A DNA stretch of 64,000 bases from positions 352,001 to 416,000 of the forward strand of contig CAXXFL010000005.1 of NCBI GenBank assembly GCA_963674965.2. Reading direction: 5' to 3'. Source of the DNA: a bacterium. Its GTDB lineage: Bacteria > RBG-13-61-14 > DATKZS01. Within the stretch, counting starts at the first letter, position 1, and each line of letters opens with the position of its first letter. The position numbers and the translations under genes were made by a program. Shown in pieces: positions 9,264 to 50,649 of this stretch. The notes beneath the pieces are model-generated. The model did not search any database. It had not been told where the DNA came from and worked only from the letters and a program-made list of their open reading frames with translations.

Positions 9264-9269
9264 TATCCG

Positions 9270-9782: not shown

Positions 9783-9789
9783 AATCCGG

Positions 9790-33839: not shown

Positions 33840-34916
33840 CTATTCCACGATCTCTCCTCTTTCCATCTTCTTCCACTTTTTTACGTACTCGTCCACGTTG
33901 TCCCGGGTGACCAGGTCAACGCCAGAGTCGACGAAAACGCGCTCGGGAAGCTTGCCATCGGCCACGATCTCGTGAAGGATTTTTACCGACTGCGACCCCC
34001 AGCCGAAGTACTTCTGCCCCACGGCCAGCTGGATTTTTCCCCGCTTGATCAGCTCGGGCGCGGGAGGGATCGCGTCGAAGGTGACGACGAAGGTTTTTTT
34101 CGGGTCCACCGAGGAGATGATCGACTTGGAATAGCCCGGCCAGCCGCCCACCGAGAGCCAGGCCCGAAGCTCGGGATAGGTCTTGGTCGCGCTTTGAATG
34201 ACCTTTTCCGCCTTGATGGCCTGGTCCTCGACGTCGAAGGTCTCGACCACCTTGATTTTAGGGTGTTGCCGGATCACGCTCATGGCCCCCTCCAGCCTTT
34301 TGGCCAGGTTGTCGGCGCCCAGGGTGGTGAGGACCGCCACTTCTCCGCCTTCCTCACCCAGGAGCCGGGCTATCTCCTTGCCCATGACCACTCCGGCCTC
34401 GAAGTCGTTCACGCCGTAATAGGCCAGGCGCCTCGAGGTCGGGGCGTCCGAGTCCCAGGTGATGACGGGTATGCCCTTGTCAATGGCCGCGTCGATGGCG
34501 GGGGCCAGGTACTCGCCGTTCAGACAGGAAACGGCGATCCCGTGCACGCCCTCGCCGGCGTATTTCTCGATCAGCTCCTTTTGCTTGGCCTGGTCGTTCT
34601 CGGCCGGGGCGTCCCAGATAATCTCGACGTCCCCGTACTCCTCGGCCTTGCGATTGGCCCCTTTTTTGGCGTAGTTGAAAACGGGTATGTGAAGGGCCTT
34701 GGGAATGAAAACGAACCTCAGTTTCTCGCCGGGGGCAAGTTCCTTCTTAAAGGCGTCCGCCGCCGGGGGGGTATCCTTTACCGTCGAAGCCGCGAGAGGC
34801 GCCGCCTCTTCGCCGCCGCTTGATCCCGTCGCGCCGTCCTGGGCCGCGACGCCGCTTAAAAGGACCGATGCCAGGGCGAAGGCCAGTACCGCCGCGTATT
34901 TCATATTGAATCTCAA
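33840..34916 (-). CDS. Sugar-binding periplasmic protein (RbsB/LacI-type fold), orphan
   Basis: Signal peptide, GIPVITWDSD, YGVNDFEAG, QKYFGWG; no ABC permease or ATPase adjacent. Confidence 0.88.
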   Translation of the reverse strand: MRFNMKYAAVLAFALASVLLSGVAAQDGATGSSGGEEAAPLAASTVKDTPPAADAFKKELAPGEKLRFVFIPKALHIPVFNYAKKGANRKAEEYGDVEIIWDAPAENDQAKQKELIEKYAGEGVHGIAVSCLNGEYLAPAIDAAIDKGIPVITWDSDAPTSRRLAYYGVNDFEAGVVMGKEIARLLGEEGGEVAVLTTLGADNLAKRLEGAMSVIRQHPKIKVVETFDVEDQAIKAEKVIQSATKTYPELRAWLSVGGWPGYSKSIISSVDPKKTFVVTFDAIPPAPELIKRGKIQLAVGQKYFGWGSQSVKILHEIVADGKLPERVFVDSGVDLVTRDNVDEYVKKWKKMERGEIVE

Positions 34917-35009
34917 AATTAATTATCTCCTTGAAGGTTTCTGGCGGCTTAATATATCACATCCGAAGAGTGGTAGAAAGAGACTTTGGCCCGGCTTGGG
35001 CGCGGTGGG

Positions 35010-36083
35010 TTATCTAGCTTTAAAATCAAGTATTTCCCGAGCCATCTCGCTCAGGGGAACCAGCTTGTCCACGAAACCAGCCACGCTCGCGGCCCTGGGC
35101 ATGCCAAAGACCACGCAGGTCGCCTCGTCCTGGGCGATGACCCTGCCCCCGGCCTCCTTGATGGCCCTGGCCCCGGCGGTACCGTCGTCTCCCATGCCGG
35201 TCAAGATGACGCCAAGTATTTTGCCCGGCCACTTCCGGGCGACCGAGGTCATCATTTCATCGGCCGAGGGGATATGGGCGGAATCGCGGGGGGTCCGGCT
35301 CAGGAAAGCGTGGAAAGTCTCGTTCTTTCGCTGGAGATGGAGGTGGTAGCCGCCGGGCGCGATATAGACTCGTCCCGGCAGTATGGGCATGCCTTCCTCG
35401 GCCTCGCTGACGGCCATGGGGCACAGCTTGTCGAAGCGCTCGGCCAGGGAGCGGGTAAAGCCGATGGGCATATGTTGAACCACGAGTATGGCCCCCGGGA
35501 AATCGGACGGAATGGCGGTGAGGACCTTCTCGAGGGTCATGGGACCTCCGGTCGAGGCCGCCATGGCCACGATGTGGGAGGGAACGCCGCTTCCCTCTGG
35601 AACGACCTGAGCGGGCGCGGCCTGGGCCTCCTGGGACGCGCGGGCCGTCTCGGCGACCTTGGCAAGGTCCACGCCGGCGATGATCTTGACCTTCTCGATC
35701 AGGGACTCGGCTATCTCGAGGATGTCCATGGTGGTGTGGCAGGAGGACTTGTCGATAAAGTCCACCGCCCCCAACTCGAGAGCCTTCAGCGTAATTTCGC
35801 CCCCGTCGCTGGTAAGGGAGCTGACCATAAGGGCCGGCGTGGGCGTCTCGGCCATTATTCGCTTCAAGGCCTCGAGGCCGTCCATGCCCGTCATCTTCAC
35901 GTCGAGGGTTACCACGTCGGGCCGGTGGAGCTTTACCTTCTCGACCGCCTCCTCGCCGTCGCGGGCGTCGGCCACCACCCGGATCGAGGAGTCCGAGGAC
36001 AGCATCCGCTTTAACGCCTTGCGCATGAAGGCCGAGTCGTCCACGACCACGACCTTGATTTTTTTAGGGCCTTTTTCCATCAT
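35010..36083 (-). CDS. cheB: Chemotaxis methylesterase/response regulator CheB
   Basis: REC domain plus ASTGGP, QHMP, APGG and LTGMGDDG motifs. Confidence 0.96.
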   Translation of the reverse strand: MMEKGPKKIKVVVVDDSAFMRKALKRMLSSDSSIRVVADARDGEEAVEKVKLHRPDVVTLDVKMTGMDGLEALKRIMAETPTPALMVSSLTSDGGEITLKALELGAVDFIDKSSCHTTMDILEIAESLIEKVKIIAGVDLAKVAETARASQEAQAAPAQVVPEGSGVPSHIVAMAASTGGPMTLEKVLTAIPSDFPGAILVVQHMPIGFTRSLAERFDKLCPMAVSEAEEGMPILPGRVYIAPGGYHLHLQRKNETFHAFLSRTPRDSAHIPSADEMMTSVARKWPGKILGVILTGMGDDGTAGARAIKEAGGRVIAQDEATCVVFGMPRAASVAGFVDKLVPLSEMAREILDFKAR

Positions 36084-36158
36084 TCCAACTATTACGTTTT
36101 CACCCAGCTTAAATATAATGATAGGTCAATAAATTCCTCTTTGCTTTTTTTTGTCCAC

Positions 36159-37010
36159 TCATCCCGGGGCTTTGCGATAGAGGATGGTCTGGGGTCTCCT
36201 GTCAGCCGCGAAATCCGTGACCATGGCGCCGAGGCTTTCCGAGTGTCCAAGCAATAGGCGGCCGCCCTCGCCCAGGGCCTCGTGGAAATAATCCAGGACC
36301 CGACTTATTTTCTCCTCCGAGAAATAGATTAGAACGTTACGGCAGAAGATGGCGTCGAAGCGTCCCAGCCTTTCCCATGCTTTCCCGTCAAGAAGGTTGG
36401 CCGGCTCGAAGGTTACGTTCTTTTTTATTTTTTCCTCCACCCGATAGAGGTCTCCATTTTTCTTGAAGAACTTATCCTTGATTTCCGGCCGGGCCGAGCG
36501 GAAACTCCGCTCGGAGTATAATCCTTTTTGGGCCGCCTCCAGGGCCCTTTGGCTTACGTCTATTCCCACTACCTGAACGTCCCAGTTCCAGAAGAAGGCC
36601 CCCGAGGCGTAAATCAGCATGGCTATGGTATAGGCCTCCTCTCCGGTGGAGCACCCGGCCGACAGCACGCGAAGCGACCTTTCCCCCCCCGAATCGAGTT
36701 TTTCCTTTTTGATCTCCTCGAGGACCTCATCCTGGAAGGTCCGCAATTGGGCCTCCTCCCTGAAAAAATAGGTCTCGTTGTTGGTCAAAAGACCGATCAC
36801 GCGGGCGAGTTCCGAATCCTTTTCCTCGCCTTCCTTCACGCTTTTAAGGTAGGCCCCGAAGGAGGAGAAGCCCCGTGAGGCCACGCGGTTATAAAGCTTC
36901 ATCCGGACGAAAGCGCGCTTTTCTTCCTTGAGGTATATTCCGTACCTTTCGTGTATAAAGTCGCGCAGGAGGCGGAACTCCACCTCGGTAAGGTCGAAAT
37001 CATAGCTCAT
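36159..37010 (-). CDS. cheR: Chemotaxis methyltransferase CheR
   Basis: TNNETYFFRE, SAGCSTGEE, IFCRNVLIYF, GHSESL. Confidence 0.95.
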   Translation of the reverse strand: MSYDFDLTEVEFRLLRDFIHERYGIYLKEEKRAFVRMKLYNRVASRGFSSFGAYLKSVKEGEEKDSELARVIGLLTNNETYFFREEAQLRTFQDEVLEEIKKEKLDSGGERSLRVLSAGCSTGEEAYTIAMLIYASGAFFWNWDVQVVGIDVSQRALEAAQKGLYSERSFRSARPEIKDKFFKKNGDLYRVEEKIKKNVTFEPANLLDGKAWERLGRFDAIFCRNVLIYFSEEKISRVLDYFHEALGEGGRLLLGHSESLGAMVTDFAADRRPQTILYRKAPG

Positions 37011-39400
37011 CTGGTCTCGCCCAGTTTCTTAAGCGACCTGGCGGCCTCCTTTCTAACCTCCTCGCTGGGGTCGTCCTTTTGGGAGCGGATAAGATGCGCT
37101 ATGGCCCGGGAATCGCCAATCAAAGATAAAGCGTGGGCGGCCTTGGCGCGGACCGTAAAAAACTCGTCCTCCAAGACCCGGATGAGGAAGGGAACGAAAG
37201 AGGGGTCCCCCACGCGGCCGAGAACGTCGACCATGAGGCCCTTGATCGCGCCGCCCGACTTGGAGAAGTAATCGGCGAAGGTTTCCATGTCCGGGGCCCC
37301 GAGACGCTCGATGGCCTCCATAACCTCGAGACGGAGGTCCTCCTCGTGGAGCAGTGGTAAAAGGCTGGTCGCCGTATCCCGATCGCCCATCTTGGAAAGG
37401 GCGGCCACGATCTCCTTCTTGATAACGTTGTCGCGCTCCTCCCCCAGGCGATCGATCAGCGCGGCGCGATGGCGCTTGTCCCTCGAGGCGCTCAGGGCCC
37501 GGATGGCGGCCACTCTCACCCCCCAGTCGGCGTCGTCAAGCGCGACGATCACCCCCGGGGCCGCCCTTCCCTCATGGTTGGCGGCCATGGACTCGAGCAC
37601 GGCCGTTCTTATTTCCGGGTTGGGGTCCTTCAGGGTCTCGCTGAGGAAATGTTTGACTTCCTTGTCCGCGAATGACCCGAGTGATCTTATAATGGCCCGT
37701 CTCAGCCTGGGTCCCGCCTCGGCGAAGCGGTCCATCAGGACGGCCGCGCTCTCCGGCCCGCCAACCCTGGCCAGGGACTCGGCGGCCGCCGCCCCCACCG
37801 ACTGGTCCTTGTCCCGGATAAGGCGCTCGAGATGGGAGACGGGGCCGGGCGATCCCGCGGCGCCCAGACAAACGGCGGCGGCGGCCCTTACCAGGGGGTT
37901 GCCGTCGTTAATAGCCGCCAAAAGGGACTCGCTCTCCAGAAGTCCGGACCTTTTCTTGCCCAGGGCCCGGATAGCCTCGGCCCGGATGGCCGTGTCCGGG
38001 CTGGAGGCCAGTTCCATCAGGGTCTGGAAGGGACCGTCCCCCTCGAGGTCGCCCAGGACGTGGACCGCGGCGGCCTTGGCTTCGCCCCGCAGACTGGGCA
38101 TGGCCGACCTGATCTTTTCCTCCAAGGAGGCCGAGCGCGATTTTCCAAGCGCCTCGGCCGCGGCCGAGCGAAGGTCGGGGTCGTCGTCGGCCAAGACGCC
38201 TATCAGGGCGTCCTCAACCGCGGGCGAAGAAGAGGCCCCCCCCAGGGCCATGACCGACTGGAGACGGACCTCGGCGTCGGGGTCCTGAAGAAGGCCAAGG
38301 CAGGCCAGGAGGCCTCGCTCGTCGCCTATCCAGTCCAGGCACCGCACGAGCGCGCATTTAATTTCCGCCTCCGGGTCCATCTCGAGGGCGGCCACCAACT
38401 GGGGGACGGCCTCGGGCCCGAAGCCGGTTATGGCCCCGGCCACGTATTCCTCGATCTCGAAGTCCCCGAGCAGCTCGATCAGGCCGGGCAGGGACTGGAC
38501 TTTCTTCAGCCAGCCCAGGGCCACCACGGCGTTTTTCCTTACCTCGAGGTCGGGGTCGGACAGCGACCCGGTCAGGTGCCGGACCACGTCGTCGCGGCCG
38601 AGAACGCCGGCGATCTCTCCCAGTCCGTCGCCTCCCTCCTGGCCGATGGAATCGATTTTCGACTGCACTTTGACCAGGGCCGCTATCACGTCGTTCCTGG
38701 TCAGAGGGTCGTCGCGGGCAAGAAGCCGAGCCAGGGCCGGAGCGGCCGAGGGGTCGCCGATGTTGCCCAGGGCCTCGATCACGGCCCCCTGCAGCATGTC
38801 GTCCCCGATAAGATCGAGAAGCGGCGGAACCGCGCGGGGGTCTCCTATTTGGCCCAGAGCCGTCGCGGCCGGGTACCTTATCCAGAATTCCTTTTTCAGG
38901 GCCTCGATCAAGGGCTCGACGGCCCCGTCGTCCGCGATCATGCCCAGGGCCTCGGCCGCGGCGTGAGCCACGTTCTCGTCCACGTCGTCAAGCGCCGCGA
39001 TAAGGTCGGCGACCGAGTCGGGGTCTCCTATCGCCCCCAGCATGACGCCGCTGAAGGTCCTGATTTCCTCGTCCGGGTCCCGAAGAAGAGCGAGAAGATA
39101 GGACGTGGCGCGCTTGCCGTAGCGGGGAAAGGCCTCCATGGCCGCCGTGCGCACGTTGGCGTCGTCGCCGTCGCGAAGGTATTTCTCGAGCTCCGGGAAA
39201 ACCAGCTCGGCCGGGTAGCCGCAAACGCCCCGGAGAGATTCCTCCCTCACCCGAAAGCTCTCGTCGCCCATGGCCGCCAGAAGAGGCCGGACGGCCCCGA
39301 TCGAGCCGCTTTTTACCAGGTCCCTTACCGCCTTGTAACGCTCTTCCTCGGTCCCACCCCCGAGCACGGACTCGAGGGCCGAATAATCGATTTCAACCAT
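37007..39400 (-). CDS. HEAT/PBS-lyase-like repeat protein
   Basis: Many DxDxxVRxAAxxALGxIGD repeats over 797 aa; overlaps cheR by 4 nt and directly abuts the second cheR. Confidence 0.93.
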   Translation of the reverse strand: MVEIDYSALESVLGGGTEEERYKAVRDLVKSGSIGAVRPLLAAMGDESFRVREESLRGVCGYPAELVFPELEKYLRDGDDANVRTAAMEAFPRYGKRATSYLLALLRDPDEEIRTFSGVMLGAIGDPDSVADLIAALDDVDENVAHAAAEALGMIADDGAVEPLIEALKKEFWIRYPAATALGQIGDPRAVPPLLDLIGDDMLQGAVIEALGNIGDPSAAPALARLLARDDPLTRNDVIAALVKVQSKIDSIGQEGGDGLGEIAGVLGRDDVVRHLTGSLSDPDLEVRKNAVVALGWLKKVQSLPGLIELLGDFEIEEYVAGAITGFGPEAVPQLVAALEMDPEAEIKCALVRCLDWIGDERGLLACLGLLQDPDAEVRLQSVMALGGASSSPAVEDALIGVLADDDPDLRSAAAEALGKSRSASLEEKIRSAMPSLRGEAKAAAVHVLGDLEGDGPFQTLMELASSPDTAIRAEAIRALGKKRSGLLESESLLAAINDGNPLVRAAAAVCLGAAGSPGPVSHLERLIRDKDQSVGAAAAESLARVGGPESAAVLMDRFAEAGPRLRRAIIRSLGSFADKEVKHFLSETLKDPNPEIRTAVLESMAANHEGRAAPGVIVALDDADWGVRVAAIRALSASRDKRHRAALIDRLGEERDNVIKKEIVAALSKMGDRDTATSLLPLLHEEDLRLEVMEAIERLGAPDMETFADYFSKSGGAIKGLMVDVLGRVGDPSFVPFLIRVLEDEFFTVRAKAAHALSLIGDSRAIAHLIRSQKDDPSEEVRKEAARSLKKLGETR

Positions 39401-40339
39401 CTACGATTCCCTTCCCCAAGGACCCGACCCGGGCTTCCGATAAAAATAGGCGTCCTTGTAATCCGCGGTCTCGAACGAATGTTTATAAACGTGAAGAAGC
39501 TCCGCGTCGCCAGTGAAAAGATACCCTCCCGGCTTCAGGCGCTTGTAAAGCTCGTTCACCAGCCGCTCCTGGGCCGCGAAGTCGAAATATATCATCACGT
39601 TTCGGCAGAATATAACGTCGAAGCGTTCCATAAGAGATATTTCCTCGACCCTATCGTCCATGAACTCGACGCGGCTTGACGGGCCCGCGTCCCCCCACAG
39701 CCGGCTGAGGTTGAACAAACCGAACCTGACGGCCGACGCGATTTCATCGCTGACGATTATCTCGCCGCCGAGTTCCTTGACGCGTTTTTCCAGCGCCCAG
39801 GCGGGAAGGTCCGAGGCCTCCGAGGCCGGGTACCTTCCCAAGCGGGCTTTCTTCAGGGCGTCCCTGCTGACGTCGGTCGCCAGTATCTCGATCTCCCAGG
39901 CCCTCGGGTATTTCAGATTCTCAAAAACGGTCATGGCCGCGCTATAGGGTTCCTCCCCGCTGGCGCAGCCGGCGCTCCAGATGGAAAGCCGGGGCTTGGG
40001 CGACGGCCGGCCCGAGGTCCAAAGGGAAATATCGAGTTCCTCCTGAAGCCGCTTCTCGATCTCGGGCAGGACTTTCTCGCCGAGCGCCAGAAAATGTTCC
40101 GGCGAGCGGAAGAACCCGGTCTTCCTCGTGGTCAGGTGCTCGAGGAGAAGCTGAATTTCTCGAGAGTCGGTTTTAAGCATCTCCAGGTAGCCCTGGTGGG
40201 AACGGCAATCGACGGCTTCCATCCTGAGGCATATCCCGGCCTCGAGGTTGTGAAGCCTGGCCCGGGAAAAGCAAAGGGAGCTTTCCGCGTAGATCAGGCG
40301 CTTGAACTCCTCCAGCGCGCGGCCGGGCAGGGGCGTCAC
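39401..40339 (-). CDS. cheR: Second CheR-type methyltransferase
   Basis: IWSAGCASGEEPYS, ATDVS, IFCRNVMIYFD; TTRKTGFFR replaces the usual TTNETxFFR. Confidence 0.9.
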   Translation of the reverse strand: MTPLPGRALEEFKRLIYAESSLCFSRARLHNLEAGICLRMEAVDCRSHQGYLEMLKTDSREIQLLLEHLTTRKTGFFRSPEHFLALGEKVLPEIEKRLQEELDISLWTSGRPSPKPRLSIWSAGCASGEEPYSAAMTVFENLKYPRAWEIEILATDVSRDALKKARLGRYPASEASDLPAWALEKRVKELGGEIIVSDEIASAVRFGLFNLSRLWGDAGPSSRVEFMDDRVEEISLMERFDVIFCRNVMIYFDFAAQERLVNELYKRLKPGGYLFTGDAELLHVYKHSFETADYKDAYFYRKPGSGPWGRES

Positions 40340-40824
40340 GACGCGGCCTCCGGGTCGTCGATAATGATTTCGGAAAGGGACTCGATTTCCTCGCCCGTCA
40401 GCATCTTTTCCGGGGCAAGGACCAGTACCAGCCCCTCCTCCGTTTTGACCATGCCCACCACGCAGCCGGGGTTTTTGCCGTCAAGCACGGCCTGGGGCAC
40501 GGGCATGTACTTGCTCTTGTCCTCCGTGACGACGGTCTTGACGTCGTCCACGACGGCGCCAAGGGACGCGGTCTCCATTTCCAGGACGATTATCCGGCTC
40601 TTTCTCTTGGCGGACGGCGCGCCGGCCCCGAGCTTTTTGCGAAGGTCCAGTATGGGCACCACCTTCTCCCGGACCTCGATTACCCCCTCGATGAACTCGG
40701 GCGAGTTGGGGACCGCCACGACCTTCTCGAGGTTCATCACCTCCCTTACCCGGGAGACCTCGACGGCGTAGACCTCGTCGCCCATGAAGAAAGTGACCAG
40801 GCGAAGCTTTTCCGACCGTTCCAT
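40336..40824 (-). CDS. cheW: CheW
   Basis: LVTFFMGDEVYAV, VPNSPEFIEGVIEVR, GAVVDDV. Confidence 0.93.
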   Translation of the reverse strand: MERSEKLRLVTFFMGDEVYAVEVSRVREVMNLEKVVAVPNSPEFIEGVIEVREKVVPILDLRKKLGAGAPSAKRKSRIIVLEMETASLGAVVDDVKTVVTEDKSKYMPVPQAVLDGKNPGCVVGMVKTEEGLVLVLAPEKMLTGEEIESLSEIIIDDPEAAS

Positions 40825-40846
40825 CTCGACGTTCCCTTGGCGGCCG

Positions 40847-40883
40847 CGGCGGGAGAAGGGGATTTCACGTTGCCCCTTCTCCC
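40847..40883. other. Strong intercistronic stem-loop
   Basis: GCGGGAGAAGGGG-11nt-CCCCTTCTCCCGC between the barrel gene and cheW; no U-tract on the coding strand. Confidence 0.6.
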
Positions 40884-40893
40884 GCGGAGGCGC

Positions 40894-41706
40894 TTACTCT
40901 CCGCCGGCCCATCCCAGGCTGACGGTAAATACTCCGTTTTCCGGCTCCCTGTCCCAGGCCAGCTCGACCTCGTCGCGCAGGTCCTCGTCTATCAGAGAGG
41001 AGTAGGCGAAGGCGGGCGTGACGTAGAAGCCCCCGCTTAAGTTCACGGGCAAGGAGACCGAGGCGCTCCAGTCGTGCCACTTGTCCTCGTCCGTTCCCAG
41101 GTCCTCGGGCCCGGCGTAGTACTGGTTCAGGTAGGCTCGGGAGGCGTATCCCACGTGTCCTCCCAGCCCCAGCTCGAGGGAGAAGCCGTCCGTCTCGTAG
41201 AGGGGAAAGGAATGGGAAAGGTCGAAACCAAGATACCCGGCCGACTCGCTTCCCTCGACGTCCACGTCCATGTTGTAGGTCAAGGTGGGCGAGGCGGGCA
41301 CGTCGACTCCAATGGCCGCGAAGACCTCGGTGGTCGAGAGCCACCCGGTGTTGGGGAAGGTATAGGCGGCGAAGCCCCCGGTCAAAGCCACCGGTCCCAG
41401 CTCGTGGGTATAGGAGGCCACGTAGTCGACCTCGGTCAGGTTGCCCGTCTCGTCGCCGTATCCTCCCTCCGTCTCGCCCCAGTCGGTGGCGTCCACGTTG
41501 CCCCACACCACCAGCTCGAGTCCGCCGTCGGTTATGGTCACCGACGGCTGAACCACGCCCTCGTCGTTCAAGGGCATGCCCCTCCAAACGTACTGGGTGG
41601 CGTAGGTCACGTCCACCCCCACGCCGGTGTTTTCGCCCGCCGCCGACAAGCTCGCGAAAAGCAAAACGCAAAGCCCCATGACGCATGTGATCGAACCACG
41701 CTTCAT
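40894..41706 (-). CDS. Putative outer-membrane beta-barrel/porin (TorF/Gcw_chp-like)
   Basis: Signal peptide; TQYVWRG, VVQPSV, WGN, TEVDY pattern; alternating beta-strands; acidic composition. Confidence 0.7.
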   Translation of the reverse strand: MKRGSITCVMGLCVLLFASLSAAGENTGVGVDVTYATQYVWRGMPLNDEGVVQPSVTITDGGLELVVWGNVDATDWGETEGGYGDETGNLTEVDYVASYTHELGPVALTGGFAAYTFPNTGWLSTTEVFAAIGVDVPASPTLTYNMDVDVEGSESAGYLGFDLSHSFPLYETDGFSLELGLGGHVGYASRAYLNQYYAGPEDLGTDEDKWHDWSASVSLPVNLSGGFYVTPAFAYSSLIDEDLRDEVELAWDREPENGVFTVSLGWAGGE

Positions 41707-41759
41707 TTTTTTTCCTCCCTCGATGCCAGGTTGCAGTTATTGAGGACCCGACGGTCCCG

Positions 41760-44216
41760 TTACGCCTCTTCCTTGATTTTAAATTCCCTGACCAGCTCCT
41801 GCAGGTTTTCCGACTGGGTGGCCAGGTCCTTGGCCGATTTGGACAATTGCTGGACCGAGCTCAGGTTGGTCCTGGCGATCGAGCTTATGTTCTCGACCGC
41901 CCGCAGCACGTTGTCTCCTCCGGCCTTCTGCTCGATGGTCGCGTTCTTGACCTGCTGGGTCATCTGGGCCATGGACTCGGAGGCCCTTACCACCTGTTTC
42001 ACTCCTCCGGCCTGTTCCTTGGTGGCCATGGAAACGTCCTGGGTAAGCCGGTTCATCTCCTCGATGGCCTTCATGACCATCTCGGCGGCCTTGGACTGTT
42101 CCTGCACGGCGATGCCAGTTTCCTCGAGGTAGGTCTGGACTTTTTCCGCGCTGGCCTTGGTTTTTTCCATGGCGCTTCTGGACACGCCGGCCAAGGAGGA
42201 CCATTGTTTAGCTCCTCTTGTTCCCTCCTCGACGGTCCTTATGGCGGAGGCGGTGCTTTTCTGCACCTCCTTTATGACCTCGCCGATCTCCTTGGTGGCC
42301 TTGATGGACCGCTCGGCCAGTTTGCGCACCTCGTCGGCCACCACGGCGAACCCCCTGCCCGCGTCGCCGGCCCGGGCCGCCTCGATGGCGGCGTTCAGGG
42401 CCAGGAGGTTGGTCTGGTCGGCGATTTCCTCGATGACCTCGACGATGCCTCCGATGTCCTCCGATCTTTTACCCAGGGACTGTATTTCCTCGGAGACGCC
42501 CTCCATCATGGCGCTGACGTCGGTAATGGCGTCCAGGGTCTCGATGACGGCCTTGGAGGACGACTCGCTTTCGCGGGCGCCCACGTCGGCGTACTCGGAC
42601 ACCTGGAGCACGTTCTTTCCCACCCTCTCGACGTTGGCCACCATCTGCTCGATGGTGGTGATGGTCTCGGTCACGTTGGCGGCCATGGTCTCGGCGTTCC
42701 TGTTCACCCGGTCGGAGGTCACGCCCATCTGCTGAATGGAGGCGGTGGTCTCGTCCACGTTGGTGGCCAGCCCCTCGGCGTTGCGGGCCACGTTCTGGAT
42801 GCTGACGGCCATTTCCTCCATGGACGAGCCCGTCTGGTCGGCGGCGGTGGCCTGGTTCTGGGCTCCCCTGGTGATCTGCTCGGAGGCGGCGGCTATTTCG
42901 TCGGCGGCGGCGGCCACGGAGGCCGACGACCTTCTTATTCTGCCGACCATGGTCGACAGGTTGTCGGCCATGGAGTTGATGGAGGAGGCCAGGACCCCGA
43001 TCTCGTCTCCCCCCTTGGCCTCGACCCTTCTGGTAATGTTGCCCTGCCGGATGGAGTCGGCTATGTCCGCCATTTCCTTGATGGGAGAAGATATGGTGCC
43101 GGCCACGAACCAGATAAAGGCTATGGCGACGAGGGCCACCAGCAGTCCCACCACCACCTGCCAGAAGCTCTCCGAACGGCCCGAATCCTTGAGACGCGCC
43201 ACTATTTCCTCCGACTCGGCGGTGATGGCCTGCTTGGGCAGCAGCACCGACACGGACCAGGGGGTCTGGGAGTTGCCCAGGTGGATGGGAACGAATATGG
43301 CCAGATTATCGTCAATTTCACGAGTTACCTGTTCGCCCGCCCGAACGGCGGATACGGTAATTTCCGCCTCCTCGGGCCGGAGGTCGGCGAACTTTTTGCC
43401 CACGTACTCGGGGTTGTCGCTGGCCGCGGCGAATATGCCGTTATAGGAGACCACGGACACCGATCCTTTTCCCCCGTATATGGAGCCGTCCGCCTTTTCC
43501 GCCAAGGACTGGAGAAAGTCAAGCCTCAGGTCCACGCCGATCATGCCGTAGAAGTTTTCCTTGAACAAGATGGGAGAGATGGCCGTGGTCATCCAAACCA
43601 CCTCGTCGCCCACCGGATAAGGATATGGGTCTATCACGCATTCCCGGAGCGTCTCCTTGGGCCGAAGATAGTACTCGCCGACCCTCTGTCCGTTCTCGTC
43701 CTTTTCCTCGCTTTCGTATCCCTGGAGCGGCTCCATGGATATGGTCCCGTCGGGAGAGCGGAACCAATAGGGGACCATCCTGCCCGTGTGATCGTAACCG
43801 GGAGTGCCGGCGTAGATGTCGTCGAGCCCGTCCACGGCGTTGGGTTCCCAGCCGTTGCCGATCCCGACGAAGTCGGGGTTCTTCTCGAGCGCGCTTCTGA
43901 GAATCCCGTTGATACGGTCGCGGCCGATGTTGAGGTTTATCACGGGGTCCTTGATTCCCGAGAGGACCTGGGCCAGGGTGCGGGCCGAGTCAAGGGCGAC
44001 CTCGATGTTGGCCTTGATCTTGAACGCCTCGGCGTTGGCCTTGCCCATCACCTCTTCCCGGGCCCGGGCCTCGGCCGACTTGGTCAGGTCGTCCTGAAAC
44101 CTTTGCTGCCGTCCCGAGGAATAGGCCAGGCCGTAAACCACCAGCGAGGCCACGACCAGCACCAGGCAGATGGTCACGAGAAAAGCGATCCTAAACTGTA
44201 AAGACTGTATTTTCAT
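41760..44216 (-). CDS. Methyl-accepting chemotaxis protein (periplasmic Cache-type sensor, HAMP, extended signalling domain)
   Basis: Two TMs; PYWFR, EYYLRPK and IDPYPY Cache-like motifs; [45 protein letters not shown]. Confidence 0.96.
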
Positions 44217-44258
44217 AACGCCATTCCCTTCAGGGCCCCCGATCGGCGGCCGCTAAAA

Positions 44259-45269
44259 TCAGTTCCCCAGCGCTTTGGTCAGCGCTCCCGTATCCACGAG
44301 AGTTTTGCCGTCGAAGTCTTTCTTGAGCATGCCGTTCGACGCGAGAAACGCCTTGAGGCCGGTAAGGTATTGATCGAGTCCTCCCCCCTGCTTGTTGCGC
44401 TCGAGCAGCTCGGCCGAGCCGTGAATCTTCACGGAATCCAGCATCTCTTTCAAGTCCTTTTCCGAGTAGTCCGCGTCATTGGAGAAGGTCTTCTCGTTGA
44501 GGACCTTTTGATACTCGCCCCAGTTGGCCGATTGATTGAGCCACTCGGCGGCCTTGACGTACCCTTTGATTATCTTTACCAGGTCCTCGGGCGGAATTTC
44601 CGCGAGCACGTCGGTCCTGGCGAACATGCCCTCGGGAATGCATCCCGGATAAGTGGCGCTGGTGGCGGCGACCTCTCCGTCTCCCTCTCTTTCGGCGCGC
44701 AGGGCCTGGGGATCGTAGTTGACGATGACCGGAAGCCTGCCCGCGATAAAATTGTCCGAGAGAATTTCAGGGTCCATCTCGGCGACCTTGAAGTCGGAAA
44801 TCTTTTGGCCATGCTGGGAAAGGTAGAGGTTCAGAAAATACTCGATGGAGGGGGCCTGAATATAGACGCCCATGGCCGAGCCCTTCTTGGCCCCGAGGTC
44901 AACGCCCTTTTTGACGATGATCTTGTCCCCGCCGTGGGACCAGTCCGTCTCGGCCAGGATTTTTACCGGCTCGCCATTCATGTAAAGACCCACGATGGTG
45001 CCTATCATGTCGAAGCCAAGGTCGATGCGCTTTCCCTTGATCGCGGCGTGGACTTCCTGGTTGCTGTTGAAATTGAAAACCTTGACGTCCACGCCGGCCT
45101 CCTTGAAAAAGCCCTTGGCCTCGGCCACGTGGGCGGCGGACCAGCCGATCCACTGCACGGTCCCGACTTTATAAACCCGGCCCTCCTGGGCTTTGCCGAC
45201 CTCGGAAATACCCCCGAAAACAACCGCGACCAACGCCAGGGCCAGTAACGCGTACCCGAATTTCTTCAT
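44259..45269 (-). CDS. Periplasmic solute-binding protein (NMT1/SsuA-like class II), orphan
   Basis: Signal peptide, WIGWSAAHVAEAKGFF, TDWSHGGDKI, YDP; no permease or ATPase nearby. Confidence 0.85.
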   Translation of the reverse strand: MKKFGYALLALALVAVVFGGISEVGKAQEGRVYKVGTVQWIGWSAAHVAEAKGFFKEAGVDVKVFNFNSNQEVHAAIKGKRIDLGFDMIGTIVGLYMNGEPVKILAETDWSHGGDKIIVKKGVDLGAKKGSAMGVYIQAPSIEYFLNLYLSQHGQKISDFKVAEMDPEILSDNFIAGRLPVIVNYDPQALRAEREGDGEVAATSATYPGCIPEGMFARTDVLAEIPPEDLVKIIKGYVKAAEWLNQSANWGEYQKVLNEKTFSNDADYSEKDLKEMLDSVKIHGSAELLERNKQGGGLDQYLTGLKAFLASNGMLKKDFDGKTLVDTGALTKALGN

Positions 45270-45304
45270 GTCCGTCTCCTCTTTTTTTTTCCGATCCAGA
45301 GGGA

Positions 45305-45859
45305 TCAGCTTTTTAGAATCCCGTCAAGATCGATCAGGATTATTATCCTTTCCTCCAGTTTGACCACGCCTTTGATAAAGCTCTTTTCATCCTCGACCAG
45401 GTCCTCCGAGACCATCTCGATTTCCTCGGATCGAACGTTCATTACCTCCGAGACGGAATCGACCAGAAGCCCCATCAGCTTCTGTCCCGTCTCCGCCACC
45501 ACGATCCTGCTCGCCTTGTCCAGGACCGACGGCCCGAGGCCCAGTCTCTTTTTCAGCTCGATGGCGGGAATGATCTTTCCCCGCAGGTTGATGACGCCCA
45601 GAACGTGCCGGGCGGAGTTGGGCACCCTGGTAATCTCGCCCACCCTGTTTATTTCCCTGACCCTGTCGATGGGAAGCCCGTATTCCTCCCGGTCCATGAA
45701 AAAGGTCACGATCTTGATCTCGGCCGAGCTTTTTTCCTCCTCCATCTCGATCGGGTCCGGTCCCTCGCCAAGGGACTCGAGTATGTCCTCGGCCAGGCCG
45801 TAGGGCGGCAAGACGATTTTCTTCTTGCCCTCTCCCGGTCTTTTCCCTTTTTCGTCCAT
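45305..45859 (-). CDS. cheW: CheW
   Basis: EEYGLPIDRVREI, VPNS...GVINLRGKIIP, GLLVDSVSEV. Confidence 0.95.
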   Translation of the reverse strand: MDEKGKRPGEGKKKIVLPPYGLAEDILESLGEGPDPIEMEEEKSSAEIKIVTFFMDREEYGLPIDRVREINRVGEITRVPNSARHVLGVINLRGKIIPAIELKKRLGLGPSVLDKASRIVVAETGQKLMGLLVDSVSEVMNVRSEEIEMVSEDLVEDEKSFIKGVVKLEERIIILIDLDGILKS

Positions 45860-45880
45860 GGACTTTTTACCTCCGGCCGC

Positions 45881-46255
45881 TCAGTCCCGACCGACCAGTT
45901 TTTCCACCAGTTCCCGGATTTGTTCCGGTTTCCAGGGTTTCTTGACGTAGGCGTCGGCGCCCAGTTTGAGGGCCTTCATGATGTCCTCGTCCTTGCCCTC
46001 GGTGCTTATCACGATGGTGGGAATATGGCCGAACCCGCCTTTTTCTCTCTCCTCGAGAAAGGCCAAACCGTTCATCTTCGGCATGTTTATATCGAGCAGG
46101 ATAAGCTCGACGTCGCCCTCGAGGGAGAGCTTGTCCATGGCCTCGAGCCCGTTTCCCGCCGTTACCAGCTTGCAACCGGCGTAGCCGGCGAAAATAGGGC
46201 GGTACATTTTCGCCTGCAGGGCCGAGTCCTCGACTATCAATACTTTTTTAAGCAT
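45881..46255 (-). CDS. cheY: CheY-like response regulator
   Basis: MLKKVLIVEDS, LLDINMPKMNG, KKPW; start overlaps the cheA stop. Confidence 0.9.
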   Translation of the reverse strand: MLKKVLIVEDSALQAKMYRPIFAGYAGCKLVTAGNGLEAMDKLSLEGDVELILLDINMPKMNGLAFLEEREKGGFGHIPTIVISTEGKDEDIMKALKLGADAYVKKPWKPEQIRELVEKLVGRD

Positions 46256-47927
46256 TTCGTATCTCCGCGACTCCTTCCTTGTCAATTCCGCGCCTGCCCA
46301 TCTCGATAAGCCTGGGCACGTCAACTATCAGTATCACCTTGCCGTCTCCCAGCACCGTGGCCCCCGCCACTCCCAGCGACTCGCCCAGGTACTCGTCAAG
46401 GGCCTTTATGACTATCTCCTGCTGGCCGACGAGGGAGTCCACCACCAGGCCGGCCCGGCCCTTGGCGCTCTCGACCACCACCACGTACTTGTTCTCCCCG
46501 AAGGCCGAGACCATGCCCAGGGCCTCGTCCATCCTAACCAGGGGCAGGACGCCCTCGCGCAAAGTGACGACCTCGCGATGGTTGACGTAGTGTATCTTCT
46601 CGGACTCGAGTCGGAAGCTCTCGATTACACCGGTAAGGGGGACCGCGTACAATTCCTCCTGGACCCGCACCAGGAGGGCGTTGACGATGGCGAGGGTAAG
46701 GGGAAGCTTGATCACGAACCTGGTACCGAAGCCTTTCTCGCTTTGCACCTCGATCTGGCCGTTGATCGAGGCCAGGCTGTTCTTCACCACGTCCATGCCC
46801 ACGCCGCGGCCGGAGATTTCCGTGACCCCGGCCGAGCTCGAGAGTCCGGGAATGAAAATTAGGTCGGAGTTGGATTTGCGCTCGAGTTCCTCGGCCGTCA
46901 GAATCCCGGCCTCCAGGGCCTTTCTGGCCAGGGCCTCGTAATCGACTCCCTTTCCGTCGTCCTCCACGGAGATGATGATGTGGTTGGACTCCTGGAAGGC
47001 CTTGATGCCCAAAAGGCCCCGCTCGGGCTTGCCCGCCTGCAGCCTCTCCTCGGGGGTCTCGATCCCGTGATCGACCGCGTTCCGGACAAGATGGAGGAGG
47101 GGGTCGCCGATCTCGTCTATCACGGACTTGTCAAGCTCGGTGTCCTCCCCCTCGATCTTGAGGGAGATATCCTTGCCCGAGTCCTGGGAAAGGTCCCGCA
47201 CGAAGCGGGGAAAACGAGTGAACACCTGCCGGATGGGAAGCATCCTCGCCTTCATAACCGCCTCGTGGAGCTCGGTGGTTACCTTGCCTATCCTCTCCAC
47301 CGCGTCGCCGAGTTCAAGGACAAGGCCTTTTTCGCCGAGCGTTTCCTTGATCTCGTGGTCGATCCTGCCCAGACGAGTGCGATGGATAACGAGTTCCCCC
47401 ACCAGGTCCAGTATGCCGTCGAGTCTTTTAAAGTCCACGCGCAGGACGTCGCTTTTGCGGGAAAAAAGGCCGGCGTCCCGGCCGCGTCCGGGTCCTTTTC
47501 CGGTTTTCGCGGGTGAAGGCGACTCCGCGGCGTTCAGGATGAATTCGTCCAGCGCCCCGTACTCCTCGTCCATGGGGGGAGAGGCGGGGGACTCCGGCAA
47601 TATGGAATCCACGGCGCGCCTGATGGCGTCCACCGCGTGGAACAGGAAATCGGCCACCTCGCTCTCGGGGTATATCTGGCCGGATTGAACGTGCTTGAAA
47701 AGGTCCTCGAGGCGATGGACGTAGGTCTGGATGGTCTTGAAGCCCATCATGCCCGAGTTGCCCTTGAAGGTGTGAAGAACGCCCAGGGCGTCCGCCACGG
47801 ATTCCTGATCGAAACCCTGGTCCAGGTCCCGCTCGATCCGGATAATCAGGTCCTCGAAAATCTCGAGGAATTCCCTCGAGTCCTCAAGGTATTCGCGTAC
47901 AAGTTCCTCGTGCCCGCTGAAGGTCAT
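46248..47927 (-). CDS. cheA: CheA histidine kinase (Hpt-dimerisation-HATPase-CheW; no obvious P2 domain)
   Basis: HTFKGNSG, HLVRNAVDHGIE, DDGKG, SGRGVGMDVV, LPLTLAI; 559 aa. Confidence 0.96.
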   Translation of the reverse strand: MTFSGHEELVREYLEDSREFLEIFEDLIIRIERDLDQGFDQESVADALGVLHTFKGNSGMMGFKTIQTYVHRLEDLFKHVQSGQIYPESEVADFLFHAVDAIRRAVDSILPESPASPPMDEEYGALDEFILNAAESPSPAKTGKGPGRGRDAGLFSRKSDVLRVDFKRLDGILDLVGELVIHRTRLGRIDHEIKETLGEKGLVLELGDAVERIGKVTTELHEAVMKARMLPIRQVFTRFPRFVRDLSQDSGKDISLKIEGEDTELDKSVIDEIGDPLLHLVRNAVDHGIETPEERLQAGKPERGLLGIKAFQESNHIIISVEDDGKGVDYEALARKALEAGILTAEELERKSNSDLIFIPGLSSSAGVTEISGRGVGMDVVKNSLASINGQIEVQSEKGFGTRFVIKLPLTLAIVNALLVRVQEELYAVPLTGVIESFRLESEKIHYVNHREVVTLREGVLPLVRMDEALGMVSAFGENKYVVVVESAKGRAGLVVDSLVGQQEIVIKALDEYLGESLGVAGATVLGDGKVILIVDVPRLIEMGRRGIDKEGVAEIRNA

Positions 47928-47936
47928 GGGGATGCC

Positions 47937-48329
47937 TTAAATCGCTTGGGCCGTCTTTTTCTCGAATATTTTCTCGATCAGCTCGTGAAGCCGGGAGGAC
48001 TGAAAGGGCTTCACGATATAGCCGCTGGCCCCTATTTTTATCGCCCGCAGAGTGTCCTCCTCCTTGCCTTCCGTGCTTATGACGATCACGGGTATTTGGA
48101 CGCTCTCCTTCTTTTTTCTGAATTTTCTCAGGAACTCGAGTCCGTTCATTATTGGCATGTTGATGTCCAGGAGAACGAGGTCGAAATCGGTCTCGCGCTC
48201 GAAAACGTCGAGCGCTTCCCTCCCGTTCATGGCCGAGGTCATGCAGCATCCGGCGTATTTCCTGAGCATGATTCGATACATATTGTGAATAAGCTCGGAA
48301 TCGTCAACTACCAATACTTTCTTCAACAT
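47937..48329 (-). CDS. cheY: CheY-like response regulator
   Basis: MLKKVLVVDDS, LLDINMPIMNG, VKPF; GGAGAGG RBS. Confidence 0.9.
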   Translation of the reverse strand: MLKKVLVVDDSELIHNMYRIMLRKYAGCCMTSAMNGREALDVFERETDFDLVLLDINMPIMNGLEFLRKFRKKKESVQIPVIVISTEGKEEDTLRAIKIGASGYIVKPFQSSRLHELIEKIFEKKTAQAI

Positions 48330-48484
48330 GGTTTCCTCTCCAGTTGGCGCCCTTTGCGGCGGGCCGCCCAGAATCGTCTCGTTACAAACTATTTGCCAAG
48401 TTGTGGTTTGAAGGCTTTGGGGTCTATCGCGATGGCGGGTCGTCTCGAACCCTTGATCAGCCGAAGGGCCTTTTTATGGACGCG

Positions 48485-48856
48485 TTACAACTCGATCCCC
48501 AACTCCGATATCTTATCTTTGAGGACGCGAAGATCGATAGGCTTGTCAAAATAATAATACGCGCCTTTTTCGTAGGCCTCTTTTTTGATTTCGGGAGACC
48601 CATAACCGGTCATCAATATGACCTCGGTTTCCGGACTGTGGTCCTTGACGAAGGGCAAAAGCTCGAGACCCTCCATGCCCAGGACCCCAGTCAGCCGAAG
48701 ATCGGCCAATACCAAGTCGAACCTGGTATTTTTAACGGCATACTCGGCTTCCTCGATCCTGCTCGCGGTAATCACCTCATTGTCGCCTCCGCGAAAAAAT
48801 TTACCCAGCATGGTAAGTATGCTTTGCTCATCGTCCACAATCAGGATGCGTTTCAT
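48485..48856 (-). CDS. Single-domain response regulator
   Basis: ILIVDDE, LADLRL, MTGYG, FDKP. Confidence 0.92.
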   Translation of the reverse strand: MKRILIVDDEQSILTMLGKFFRGGDNEVITASRIEEAEYAVKNTRFDLVLADLRLTGVLGMEGLELLPFVKDHSPETEVILMTGYGSPEIKKEAYEKGAYYYFDKPIDLRVLKDKISELGIEL

Positions 48857-48929: not shown

Positions 48930-48945
48930 AGCAACTATCGGGCCA
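48930..48945 (-). promoter_or_regulatory. Candidate sigma54 (-24/-12) promoter for the chemosensory operon
   Basis: Minus strand TGGCCC-GATAG-TTGCT versus consensus TGGCAC-N5-TTGC(A/T), with exact GG-N10-GC spacing, about 75 nt upstream of the first gene. Confidence 0.65.
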
Positions 48946-49201
48946 TGAAGAAAGAAAGATTAATTTGCAATCTTATCGGGCCGTTGCGGGCAAGCAGTAA
49001 AAAGCGGATAAAAAAATCGTCGCGAAAAGCGACGGCTCTCATGCAAAAAGCATATTCACATTTGCCATCTTTATTGGCAAAATAGTATTAGATTGCCCGC
49101 TACCGAGGAAATATTCGCGTCCTCAATGAGATTATTATTGAGATTCAAAAGCTTATGATATAGCCTCTTGCAAAATTCCCGCTTTGGAGTGCGGCGGCTC
49201 G

Positions 49202-50649
49202 TGTACAGACCGGAGACATGCTTCACAAGTGTTCGGGCACATAGGTAACATATTTCCTCGCTTGCTCGCGCTCCTGCTATTGACCTATTTTTCCTCGACC
49301 TAAGTTTATCTATGCATCGATCACGTGGCCAGTCAAGGGCGGCGCAGCCGTCCCGCAGGGATTTACCCTTGACGGGCCTCGTGGAGATGCTATCGTCCTC
49401 ATGGTCGAGAAAACCTTTTATCACGTTTGCCTCCAGCTATGGTCTCGCAGATCGACGACCATGATCCGTTGGCGGCAGTAATAAACCTCGATCACGCCGT
49501 CCACTTGTGTATTTCGCAAGCCGACCTTTTCACCAACGAAGGCCCGCCCCACCGGATAAAACTCGCCTTTGATTCTAACCGCCCCGCCCGGGTTCACCTT
49601 GCAAGTCGGCCAATCATCCCGATACCAGACTTCGGGCAGAGTCTCGGGATAGGCAAAGGGGCTCATCGCGTAACGGCTGGCCGGCGTGTTCATGTCCAGG
49701 GCCTCGTGGGGACGTTCATGGTTATAGCAGTCGCGAAAACGGTCGAAGGCTTTCTGACAGTCGTTCAGGTCGCCGAAGTTGCGTCCCCTTATCGCCTCCT
49801 CCTTAAGGGTCCGGTTGAACCGCTCGTTCTTGCCCTGGGTCTGGGGATGAAAGGGACGGCCGTGGCTGATGCCGACGCCGAGCCTGATCAGCCAGGCGCT
49901 CATGTAGTTGTAACGCGAGTTCGGCGCGCAGAAGCTCGATCCGTTGTCGGTAAGTATGCGGCTGGGCAGGCCGTAGCGCATGAAGACCGGCGCCAGGCTT
50001 GCCCGCACGGTGTCCGCCCGTTCGTTGGAGCAGGCGGTGACCGTCAACGCGAACCTGGAGTGGTCGTCCACCACGGTGAGAGGGTGACAGGAACCGGCCG
50101 CCGTCGGAAAATGTCCCTTGAAATCCATCTGCCACAACTGGTTGGGAGCCTCTCGTTCGAAACGCTTCATGGGACCGCGAGCCTTGCGCTGGGCGTCCCG
50201 CAGCCTGCCGTTGCGGTCGAGGATCGCCGTGATCGTGCTCGGCCTTGGCACTTCGTCGTGACCAAGATCGATCAGCCGCCGCTCGATTTTGCGCCCTCCC
50301 CAGGTCGGATGCTCGTCGCGAACCGAAAGCACCAACTGCTCGACCTCCGGGCAAACACGCTGGGGAGATCGCCTGGGACGGCGGGACCTGTCACATGCCC
50401 AGTCCTCTTCACCGCTTTGCCCACGGCTGATCCACTTGTAGCCGGTGCGGCGACTGATACCGAATCGACGGCATAACTCGCTTATGTTGGAACCTGGCTG
50501 CATCGCTAAATAAACAAAATCCTTCCTCTGAGACACTTCGGTAACCTCATTCCATGGCATCTTTCTTCTCCTGTATTGACATACAGAAGAATGTACCAAC
50601 TGTTACCCATGTCTCCGAACACCTGTTACCCATGTCTCCGGTCTGTACA
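49202..50649 (-). mobile_element. IS481-family insertion sequence (1448 bp)
   Basis: Perfect 19-bp terminal IR TGTACAGACCGGAGACATG; second internal binding repeat 23 bp in at both ends; CTCG duplicated at 49198-49201 and 50650-50653. Confidence 0.93.
49421..50560 (-). CDS. IS481-family transposase (HTH + rve DDE)
   Basis: MPWNEV, CRRFGISRRTGYKW, WQMDFKG, DDHSR, TDNG, PQTQGKNERFNRTLK. Confidence 0.95.
   Translation of the reverse strand: MPWNEVTEVSQRKDFVYLAMQPGSNISELCRRFGISRRTGYKWISRGQSGEEDWACDRSRRPRRSPQRVCPEVEQLVLSVRDEHPTWGGRKIERRLIDLGHDEVPRPSTITAILDRNGRLRDAQRKARGPMKRFEREAPNQLWQMDFKGHFPTAAGSCHPLTVVDDHSRFALTVTACSNERADTVRASLAPVFMRYGLPSRILTDNGSSFCAPNSRYNYMSAWLIRLGVGISHGRPFHPQTQGKNERFNRTLKEEAIRGRNFGDLNDCQKAFDRFRDCYNHERPHEALDMNTPASRYAMSPFAYPETLPEVWYRDDWPTCKVNPGGAVRIKGEFYPVGRAFVGEKVGLRNTQVDGVIEVYYCRQRIMVVDLRDHSWRQT

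Follow-up and report, generated by a model that had tools for sequence, protein, structure and literature searches.

The 64,000-nucleotide stretch of bacterial DNA analysed here (the window; GenBank assembly GCA_963674965.2, contig CAXXFL010000005.1, positions 352,001 to 416,000 of the forward strand) contains a chemosensory (che) operon of 14 co-oriented minus-strand genes at 33840-48856, in which the gene for a secreted solute-binding protein (SBP) of the NMT1_2 family lies immediately upstream of the gene for a transmembrane methyl-accepting chemotaxis protein (MCP). Judged by gene neighbourhoods in many genomes, these two genes constitute a conserved and widespread cassette, and the coupling of their products has good comparative support. 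The operon as a whole is probably, though far from certainly, a sigma-54-driven che core into which the SBP-MCP cassette has been swapped as the input and in which a HEAT-repeat protein provides the output. A preliminary description of the stretch proposed a longer dedicated sensing chain that leads from an outer-membrane barrel through binding proteins to the MCP, CheA and several receivers; the pairing of SBP and MCP in that chain is supported, being recurrent, free of transporter genes and often located inside che operons, and the barrel and a second SBP look like local additions.

The gene content and order given in the preliminary description are borne out by the list of open reading frames (ORFs), by Pfam and NCBIfam matches and by the translations. 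The NMT1_2 SBP (44259..45269; SsuA/TauA/NrtA superfamily), the proposed co-receptor, matches PF13379 with 53.6 bits against a cut-off of 24.7, is the sole NMT1_2 match in the genome, and begins with a basic-hydrophobic leader, as judged from the translation and not by a dedicated signal-peptide predictor. It falls outside the named specificity groups, scoring 66.5 bits with the SsuA_fam model, for which the cut-off is 163.5, and lower still with the urea-type and SaoX models. The MCP gene (41760..44216) follows after 42 nt, not the 52 nt previously noted, and encodes 818 amino acids (aa) that comprise a PctD-like dCache sensor (residues ~33-350), a HAMP domain and a signalling domain (Pfam MCPsignal and HAMP). 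On its other side the MCP gene is flanked, as described, by the barrel gene at a distance of 53 nt. The earlier statement that the window lacks an ABC permease or ATPase also holds: Pfam finds neither in 55 ORFs (13 + 42), and hidden Markov models (HMMs) built from the host genome's own Pfam-defined ABC domains yield no match over the six-frame translation of the window while recovering the positive controls. Genome-wide, there are 43 matches to PF00005, the nearest on the same contig being at C5:270999 and C5:734845, outside 352001-416000; none of the 14 PF00528 matches is on C5, and the PF02653 matches on C5 are confined to 45-47 kb.

The NMT1_2 SBP has 166 homologues at E<=1e-10, the best with 57% identity. 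A scan of species-representative genomes with a profile of the SBP clade yields 70 loci, 55 of which have 1500 nt or more of sequence on the downstream side of the SBP gene, and the neighbours were typed by tblastn with the window proteins. The next gene on the same strand encodes a sensor in 36 of the 55 loci (23 MCPs and 13 histidine kinases), and the periplasmic domain of the MCP is homologous to that of the window MCP in 16 of them. Pfam analysis of 44 downstream genes gives 20 MCP-type proteins, 13 histidine kinases, 11 others and no ABC permease; the MCP-type proteins carry dCache/PDC or short four-helix-bundle sensors, and the kinases are mostly hybrid, with an N-terminal periplasmic part of ~200 aa and PAS domains. 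At five further loci a dCache MCP, a dCache_2 protein, a hybrid kinase or a Ser/Thr kinase is encoded directly upstream of the SBP. Seven of the 70 loci have the SBP-MCP pair within a che operon, and the window-like order CheA-CheY-CheW-SBP-MCP is found in L037, L039 and L051. These results support co-occurrence of the SBP with the MCP in the neighbourhood search that the preliminary description had suggested, and not co-occurrence with the barrel. The divergence of the SBPs is correlated with that of the sensor domains over 16 pairs (Pearson 0.46, reached in 39 of 5000 permutations), a modest co-divergence that could be explained by shared host ancestry. Complex prediction with the SBP (28-336) and the MCP sensor (33-350), both supplied as alignments, gave a score of 0.01 against a mark of 0.32 and speaks neither for nor against the pairing.

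Some of the sampled loci have further features. The SBP gene occurs as a tandem array of four copies, followed by MCP genes, in L041 (~7791-12231), and as two tandem copies in L027 (454-2489). In L073 (7623-9980) the SBP homologue directly follows a TonB-dependent receptor gene, and a CysZ-type sulfate transporter gene directly follows the SBP homologue in L027 (2594-3334) and L036 (1204-1938); these neighbours are possible hints of an outer-membrane partner and of a sulphur-containing ligand, respectively.

The arrangement in the window resembles those of BasB/BasT and CosB/CosT in Halobacterium salinarum, in which, according to the available part of a 2021 review (PMC8050422), an SBP gene lies just upstream of the gene for a transducer with a dCache-like sensor, in a locus devoid of transporter genes. 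The window SBP is likewise exported and its gene is co-oriented with, and adjoins, the transducer gene in a locus without cognate ABC genes. CosB/CosT senses quaternary amines, and the window sensor belongs to the group of dCache domains for amines and quaternary amines. BasB and CosB, however, are archaeal lipoprotein-type proteins of the Peripla_BP_6 and OpuAC families that feed motility, whereas the window SBP is an NMT1_2 protein, and its gene and that of the MCP lie in a bacterial HEAT-type che operon. In Escherichia coli, too, a periplasmic SBP adds an indirect input beside direct binding, as with MBP-Tar, RBP/GBP-Trg and DppA-Tap (PMC8050422, available part), but the E. coli SBP genes belong to ABC operons and the receptors have TarH four-helix-bundle sensors, whereas the window SBP is receptor-linked and the sensor is a dCache domain. 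The available part of the same review treats 13 SBP families that act on receptors; the NMT1 type is absent there (0 occurrences of 'NMT1' and of 'PF13379'), and the sole mention of TauA is in an expression table. A literature search, whose coverage excluded subscription papers, found nothing relevant on an NMT1/TauA-type SBP with a chemoreceptor. The finding belongs with the known binding-protein-assisted chemoreceptors, among which an NMT1-type SBP in such a role appears to be new.

The sensor domain of the window MCP (residues 33-350) matches the Pseudomonas aeruginosa receptor PctD in the PDB with E 1.9e-41 (7PRQ; see also 7PRR), followed by 9HEH (1.5e-34) and TlpQ (6FU4, 5.6e-32); it also matches McpU (6F9G) and PacA (7PSG), and a profile search gives E 1e-64. 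The AlphaFold2 (AF2) model (pLDDT 89.2) consists of a long helix and two alpha/beta modules. No match to Pfam dCache_1 or PDC_1 exceeds the gathering score, the only hit being MCP-like_PDC_1 with 23.8 against 27 bits. When the numbering offset is taken from the AMADS motif and the ligand residues of PctD from the available part of PMC9040839, Y206 and D235 of PctD align with Y200 and D229 of the window protein, both of which are invariant in a 16-sequence alignment. The window sensor also keeps Met215 and aromatic residues at the positions of PctD Trp155 and Phe188, and lacks Phe124 (F124) and the acetylcholine-tail residues A168, M169, D171 and S172. The available part of PMC9040839 mentions no SBP that works with PctD. 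From the residue comparison the pocket seems to be functional, and it plausibly binds an amine-like ligand directly. In that case the SBP would provide a second input instead of being the only primary receptor, and a strict chain with the SBP as primary receptor is unneeded because the PctD-like pocket is kept.

The same pocket raises an alternative, namely that the MCP senses an amine directly and that the NMT1-type SBP is a transport protein for a distant NitT/TauT importer, or a ligand scavenger, whose gene stays beside receptor genes only so that both are co-regulated in response to one and the same compound. This alternative is regarded as unlikely, and it draws on several of the observations that weigh against a co-receptor role. 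The sensor, which is similar to PctD in the 38% range, retains the Tyr and Asp common to PctD and PacA and most of the aromatic cage; direct ligand binding is known for PctD, TlpQ and McpU-type domains (PDB titles; PMC9040839), and in the window dCache domain it might suffice without the SBP. One complete NitT/TauT-type SBP-permease-ATPase importer is encoded at C1:366-369 kb; it has its own SBP and could also accept the NMT1_2 SBP, which may thus serve transport as well. The genome also has molybdate and tungstate transport systems, and SBPs that act on bacterial chemoreceptors are usually transport proteins, at least in the available part of PMC8050422. Against the co-receptor role itself, it also counts that 19 of the 55 loci show no downstream sensor in the tblastn-probe test, the SBP gene being followed among them by genes for CysZ, a sigma-54 activator or unrelated enzymes, and the sole other SBP homologue in the phylum (genome G009) has no che gene on its short contigs. 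The cassette counts are also not independent, because the loci were retrieved with a single peptide pattern and many come from related metagenome-assembled genomes of Desulfobacterota; ORFs were chosen by length.

Against the transport explanation stands the contrast between transporter and sensor neighbours. HMMs for ABC genes, with working controls, detect a permease and ATPase importer within the 10-kb flanks of a single one of the 70 SBP genes, at a distance of 4-6 kb, as compared with a sensor as the next gene in 36 of 55. The NMT1_2 SBP, moreover, gives no tblastn match to the SBP of the C1 importer at E<=1e-8. The SBP clade pairs with two unrelated sensor folds, the dCache MCPs and the four-helix-bundle hybrid kinases, which is hard to fit to a shared pocket, and on this ground the role of the SBP is argued to be independent of the dCache pocket.

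The origin of the MCP can be traced by comparison within the phylum, which is thinly sampled (13 genomes in the search set). A genome of the same order (G005) holds a collinear che operon with gene-by-gene identities of 38-70%, in the order PAS kinase, sigma-54 regulator, RR1, GAF protein, DUF4388 protein, CheY, CheA, CheY, CheW, short CheR, ParA-like ATPase, MCP, CheW, CheR, HEAT, CheR and CheB. The NMT1-type SBP, the barrel and the second SBP of the window, which belongs to the Peripla_BP_4 family, are all missing from this operon, which tells against the earlier view of the three as components dedicated to che signalling. Residues 375-816 of the window MCP match the G005 MCP with 55% identity, whereas the N-terminal part has no match there, the G005 protein having a poly-HAMP N-terminus with five HAMP_2 units in place of a periplasmic sensor. 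Because the match is limited to residues 375-816, the window MCP is, by sequence comparison, a chimera of a vertically inherited signalling part and a different input domain. In G005 itself (L111, G005:C10:1-20000), the ParA-like ATPase gene lies directly upstream of the gene for the 978-aa MCP with five HAMP_2 units (8057-11760).

The output of the operon is probably linked to its HEAT-repeat protein (37007..39400; 797 aa, Pfam HEAT_2 in 11 stretches), a candidate partner of the receivers, whose gene has a 0-nt gap to CheR1 and a 4-nt overlap with CheR2. Full-length homologues are present at the same position in G005 and in a mini-locus of the host genome at C1:242-248 kb (L109, G000:C1:234000-253999, ~7536-14409), which consists of genes for a PAS kinase, a sigma-54 regulator, RR1, CheY and the HEAT homologue and has no CheA, CheW or MCP gene nearby. 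RR1, CheY and the HEAT protein co-occur in all three loci, and their presence in a locus without CheA ties the receivers to the HEAT protein. The suggestion that the output may be something other than motility is plausible because the HEAT protein is conserved together with the receivers. No flagellar or pilus families turned up in the general Pfam scans of the window, which agrees with the preliminary description; elsewhere, the genome has six CheA-type kinases (6 H-kinase_dim matches), FlhA and four flagellin-type genes, and a motility output is therefore possible in principle. A parallel is provided by the Che7 system of Myxococcus xanthus, which also has a HEAT-repeat gene inside the che operon (gene list from the available part of PMC3945109) and in which the HEAT protein Cpc7 binds the single-domain receiver CheY7 (PMC11514114, available part). 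In the window, by contrast, the HEAT gene is flanked by two CheR genes, and the likeness to Che7 is one of arrangement. The Che7 operon also contains a desaturase gene; no desaturase family turned up in the Pfam scans of the window. Nothing relevant on HEAT repeats in Geobacter che clusters was found in the open literature, and a 2008 Geobacter paper mentions 'HEAT repeat' 0 times.

In the preferred explanation, the bacterium is flagellated and has six chemosensory systems, of which the region is one. The region probably has a sigma-54 promoter, controlled by the neighbouring PAS kinase and NtrC-like regulator. Its conserved core, which is common to the related genome (RR1, CheY, CheA, CheY, CheW, MCP, CheW, CheR, HEAT protein, CheR and CheB), most likely signals via the single-domain receivers to the HEAT protein and not to the flagellar motor, by analogy with CheY7 and Cpc7 of Myxococcus. 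The input end appears to have been replaced here by the cassette of an NMT1/SsuA-like SBP and a PctD-like dCache MCP, in which the SBP would act as a co-receptor: it would trap a small periplasmic solute, probably one that contains nitrogen or sulphur, and dock on the sensor domain. An amine may still be bound directly by the dCache pocket; the receptor would then have two inputs, in the manner of Tar, which responds to both aspartate and MBP-maltose. The barrel, as a non-conserved feature, may help the ligand to enter.

The barrel gene (40894..41706) encodes 270 aa with a signal peptide in the translation, and had been predicted to specify an outer-membrane barrel. The fold prediction proves sound, since AF2 gives an all-beta model of high confidence (pLDDT 86.1, pTM 0.80) and the best Foldseek matches are small outer-membrane channels (PcoB at 2.6e-8, then Tsx, NanC and OmpG), and according to the model the protein is a real 12-strand-type outer-membrane channel. 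It is a divergent relative of the TorF/Gcw_chp putative porins (TIGR02001, PF09694), which it resembles in its signal peptide, its size (~250-270 aa) and the beta-barrel model; TIGR02001 gives 31.6 bits (E 1.1e-7), below the cut-off of 47.15, and no Pfam family matches at E<=10. Besides itself, the barrel has 16 homologues, several of which carry the PF09694 or TIGR02001 name. Unlike TorF, the relatives in the lineage of the window precede amtB-glnK and not tor genes, and nothing relevant on a porin function of TorF/Gcw_chp was found in the open literature.

The barrel nevertheless finds no support as a part of the sensing chain, because its family HMM detects no member at any of the 70 cassette loci, with both controls found, and its relatives sit in amtB-glnK loci. 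Of ten barrel loci in relatives, seven lie after a sigma-54 activator gene and none beside che genes, and the order GAF-sigma-54 activator, barrel, AmtB and GlnK is found in three of five Pfam-scanned loci, including that of the host's own paralogue, where the activator passes the NifA model. This paralogue, in another functional context, is 44-47% identical to the che-embedded barrel. The linkage to amtB-glnK suggests that the family may consist of nitrogen-controlled outer-membrane channels through which ammonium or small amines pass. As the relatives precede amtB-glnK and none of the 70 cassette loci has a barrel, the che copy represents a lineage-specific duplication of a nitrogen-regulated channel. 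Its location beside an amine-type receptor is suggestive, though a single instance. The possibility that the barrel arrived together with the cassette was rejected, since no cassette locus has a barrel and the nearest relatives are in the host lineage. The loci with barrel, amtB and glnK are L012 (G000:C1:1490500-1510499), L016 (G001) and L018 (G011), and the window genome has two consecutive copies of amtB-glnK.

The second, sugar-type SBP reported after cheB is present at 33840..34916, 93 nt past CheB, and belongs to the Peripla_BP_4 family (PF13407, 183.7 bits against a cut-off of 35.1). From the comparisons below, it is probably an unrelated, resident orphan at the operon edge and no conserved part of the system. 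Its nearest paralogue in the genome is 25% identical, and the two other Peripla_BP_4 genes of the genome lie in ABC operons. No BPD_transp_2 permease or ABC ATPase gene is found near it here or in four relatives, all of which have orthologues (48-71% identity) located near neither che nor ABC genes; G005 has no orthologue at E<=1e-30 despite having the che operon. The wider family was scanned with a set of closer homologues, as the first alignment was too diverse. A BPD_transp_2 permease or ABC ATPase gene lies within 2.5 kb in 43 of its 55 metagenome loci with usable flanks, and the remaining 12, which include the closest homologues (55-71% identity), are among unrelated housekeeping genes. 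No che gene occurs in these loci, the lone match to the CheB probe (L125/L126) overlapping a sigma-54 regulator gene, and no Peripla_BP_4 homologue occurs in the 70 cassette loci. The proposal that this SBP also belongs to the sensing chain is left without support by the transporter linkage of its family and by the location of the orthologues of the four relatives away from che genes. An 881-aa ORF on contig C6 (L112:4146-6791) has an unusual domain order, with an MCP signalling domain (293-447) followed by a C-terminal Peripla_BP_4 domain (586-832); this fusion elsewhere in the genome keeps the idea of sensing through the second SBP alive.

The full chain of the preliminary description, in which the ligand enters through the barrel, the Cache MCP receives ligands from both SBPs and all three genes serve the che system exclusively, is distinctly unlikely. 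The three genes are co-oriented, with gaps of 42, 53, 69 and 93 nt in which terminator-like sites are absent, and the barrel has a channel fold. A thematic fit can be seen between the ammonium transporters that the barrel relatives precede and the amine-type sensor of the MCP, and the TonB-dependent receptor gene upstream of the SBP gene in L073 and the MCP-Peripla_BP_4 fusion point in the same direction. However, the barrel family is found at 0 of the 70 cassette loci, and its loci in relatives adjoin a sigma-54 activator in 7 of 10 cases and che genes in none; Peripla_BP_4 homologues are likewise missing from the cassette loci, being ABC-linked in 43 of 55 loci of their own, none with a che gene, and their orthologues lie away from che genes in 4 of 4 relatives. 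The G005 operon, moreover, does without all three genes.

A broader proposal can be built around the preferred explanation, namely that the NMT1/SsuA-like clade consists of transport-independent signalling co-receptors, spread over at least six phyla, for PctD-like dCache receptors and four-helix-bundle hybrid kinases, and that it is joined here by a duplicate of a NifA-controlled, amtB-linked channel, giving an envelope-spanning chain of channel, SBP and amine-type dCache MCP that would sense a small nitrogenous solute and act on a sigma-54-controlled che pathway with output to the HEAT protein and not to the motor. As a whole, this proposal is unlikely to hold. Binding-protein-assisted sensing is known from few model systems. 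If the co-receptor role is true, the NMT1-type clade would represent a further co-receptor family, widespread and easy to test, which is sensor-adjacent in two thirds of the sampled loci and almost never transporter-adjacent, and many orphan MCPs and kinases of sulphate reducers and other anaerobes could be matched to ligands with its help. The window and G005 also form a natural before-and-after pair, with the che operon present with and without the cassette and an exchange of the input at the HAMP boundary.

The remaining genes of the operon are those of the core. RR1 (48485..48856) and CheY-a (47937..48329) are single-domain receivers (Pfam Response_reg, with E 3e-29 for CheY-a, for which NCBIfam CheY is the top match, below its cut-off), and CheA (46248..47927) has Hpt, dimerisation, HATPase and CheW domains and is 54% identical to its G005 orthologue. 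The third single-domain receiver, CheY-b (45881..46255), is a 124-aa open frame that overlaps the CheA stop by 8 nt and had no separate mention in the preliminary description; in tblastn comparisons it is 53% identical to CheY-a and 70% identical to its positional counterpart in G005. The two CheW genes (CheW1, 45305..45859, Pfam CheW E 2.4e-37; CheW2, 40336..40824, Pfam CheW) lie on either side of the SBP, MCP and barrel genes, with 69 nt between the barrel and CheW2. They are followed by CheR1 (39401..40339) and, beyond the HEAT gene, CheR2 (36159..37010), both identified by Pfam CheR, and by CheB (35010..36083), which has a REC and a methylesterase domain (Pfam) and shares 62% identity with its orthologue in G005, where it ends the run of che genes. 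The remaining junctions of the operon are at most 155 nt or overlapping. Terminator-like sites in the window are at chance count (22 against 22.9) and none is inside the che intergenic gaps, which is uninformative on operon breaks.

Upstream of the operon, also on the minus strand, lie a PAS histidine kinase gene (52247..53689; Pfam PAS, HisKA and HATPase_c) and the gene of its partner, an NtrC/AtoC-like sigma-54-dependent response regulator (50899..52245; REC-AAA-HTH_8 by Pfam), which matches the NCBIfam AtoC and NtrC models below their cut-offs and has a 44% identical G005 orthologue at the same position. The order of histidine kinase, sigma-54 regulator and RR1 is common to the window, G005 and the paralogous mini-locus of the host, and the RR1 copies that follow the regulator in the latter two are 64-65% identical. 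A sigma-54 -24/-12-like element with one consensus mismatch (48930..48945, minus strand), a candidate operon promoter, is located 74 nt upstream of RR1, and all three loci examined have such an element ahead of RR1, at distances of 45-75 nt. A further point against the favoured explanation is that matches to the sigma-54 pattern overall are at chance frequency in each scan, so that only the recurring position is suggestive.

Between the regulator gene and the sigma-54-like element, a copy of an IS481-family insertion sequence (IS) has been inserted (49162..50798, minus strand; Pfam rve and HTH on ORF 49421-50599), and this 1637-bp element has at least nine copies in the genome with 99% identity. 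The vicinity of a multi-copy IS just upstream of the operon could be taken to mean that the operon is a recent and loose mosaic, in which IS activity or insertion placed the cassette, the barrel and the second SBP and some of these genes are decaying or not co-expressed; the absence of the three genes from the orthologous G005 operon and the 44-47% identical barrel paralogue in a different functional context would agree with such an origin. This explanation is nonetheless highly unlikely, as all operon ORFs are intact with plausible leaders in the translations, the two parts of the MCP are fused in frame, the HAMP domain being complete and the signalling domain sharing 55% identity with its G005 orthologue, and che-embedded cassettes elsewhere occupy the same position, between CheW and the signalling part of the MCP. 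The 149-bp end of the IS (50650-50798) also occurs alone at ~70 places on all 7 contigs, with 85-99% identity, and looks like a miniature inverted-repeat transposable element (MITE).

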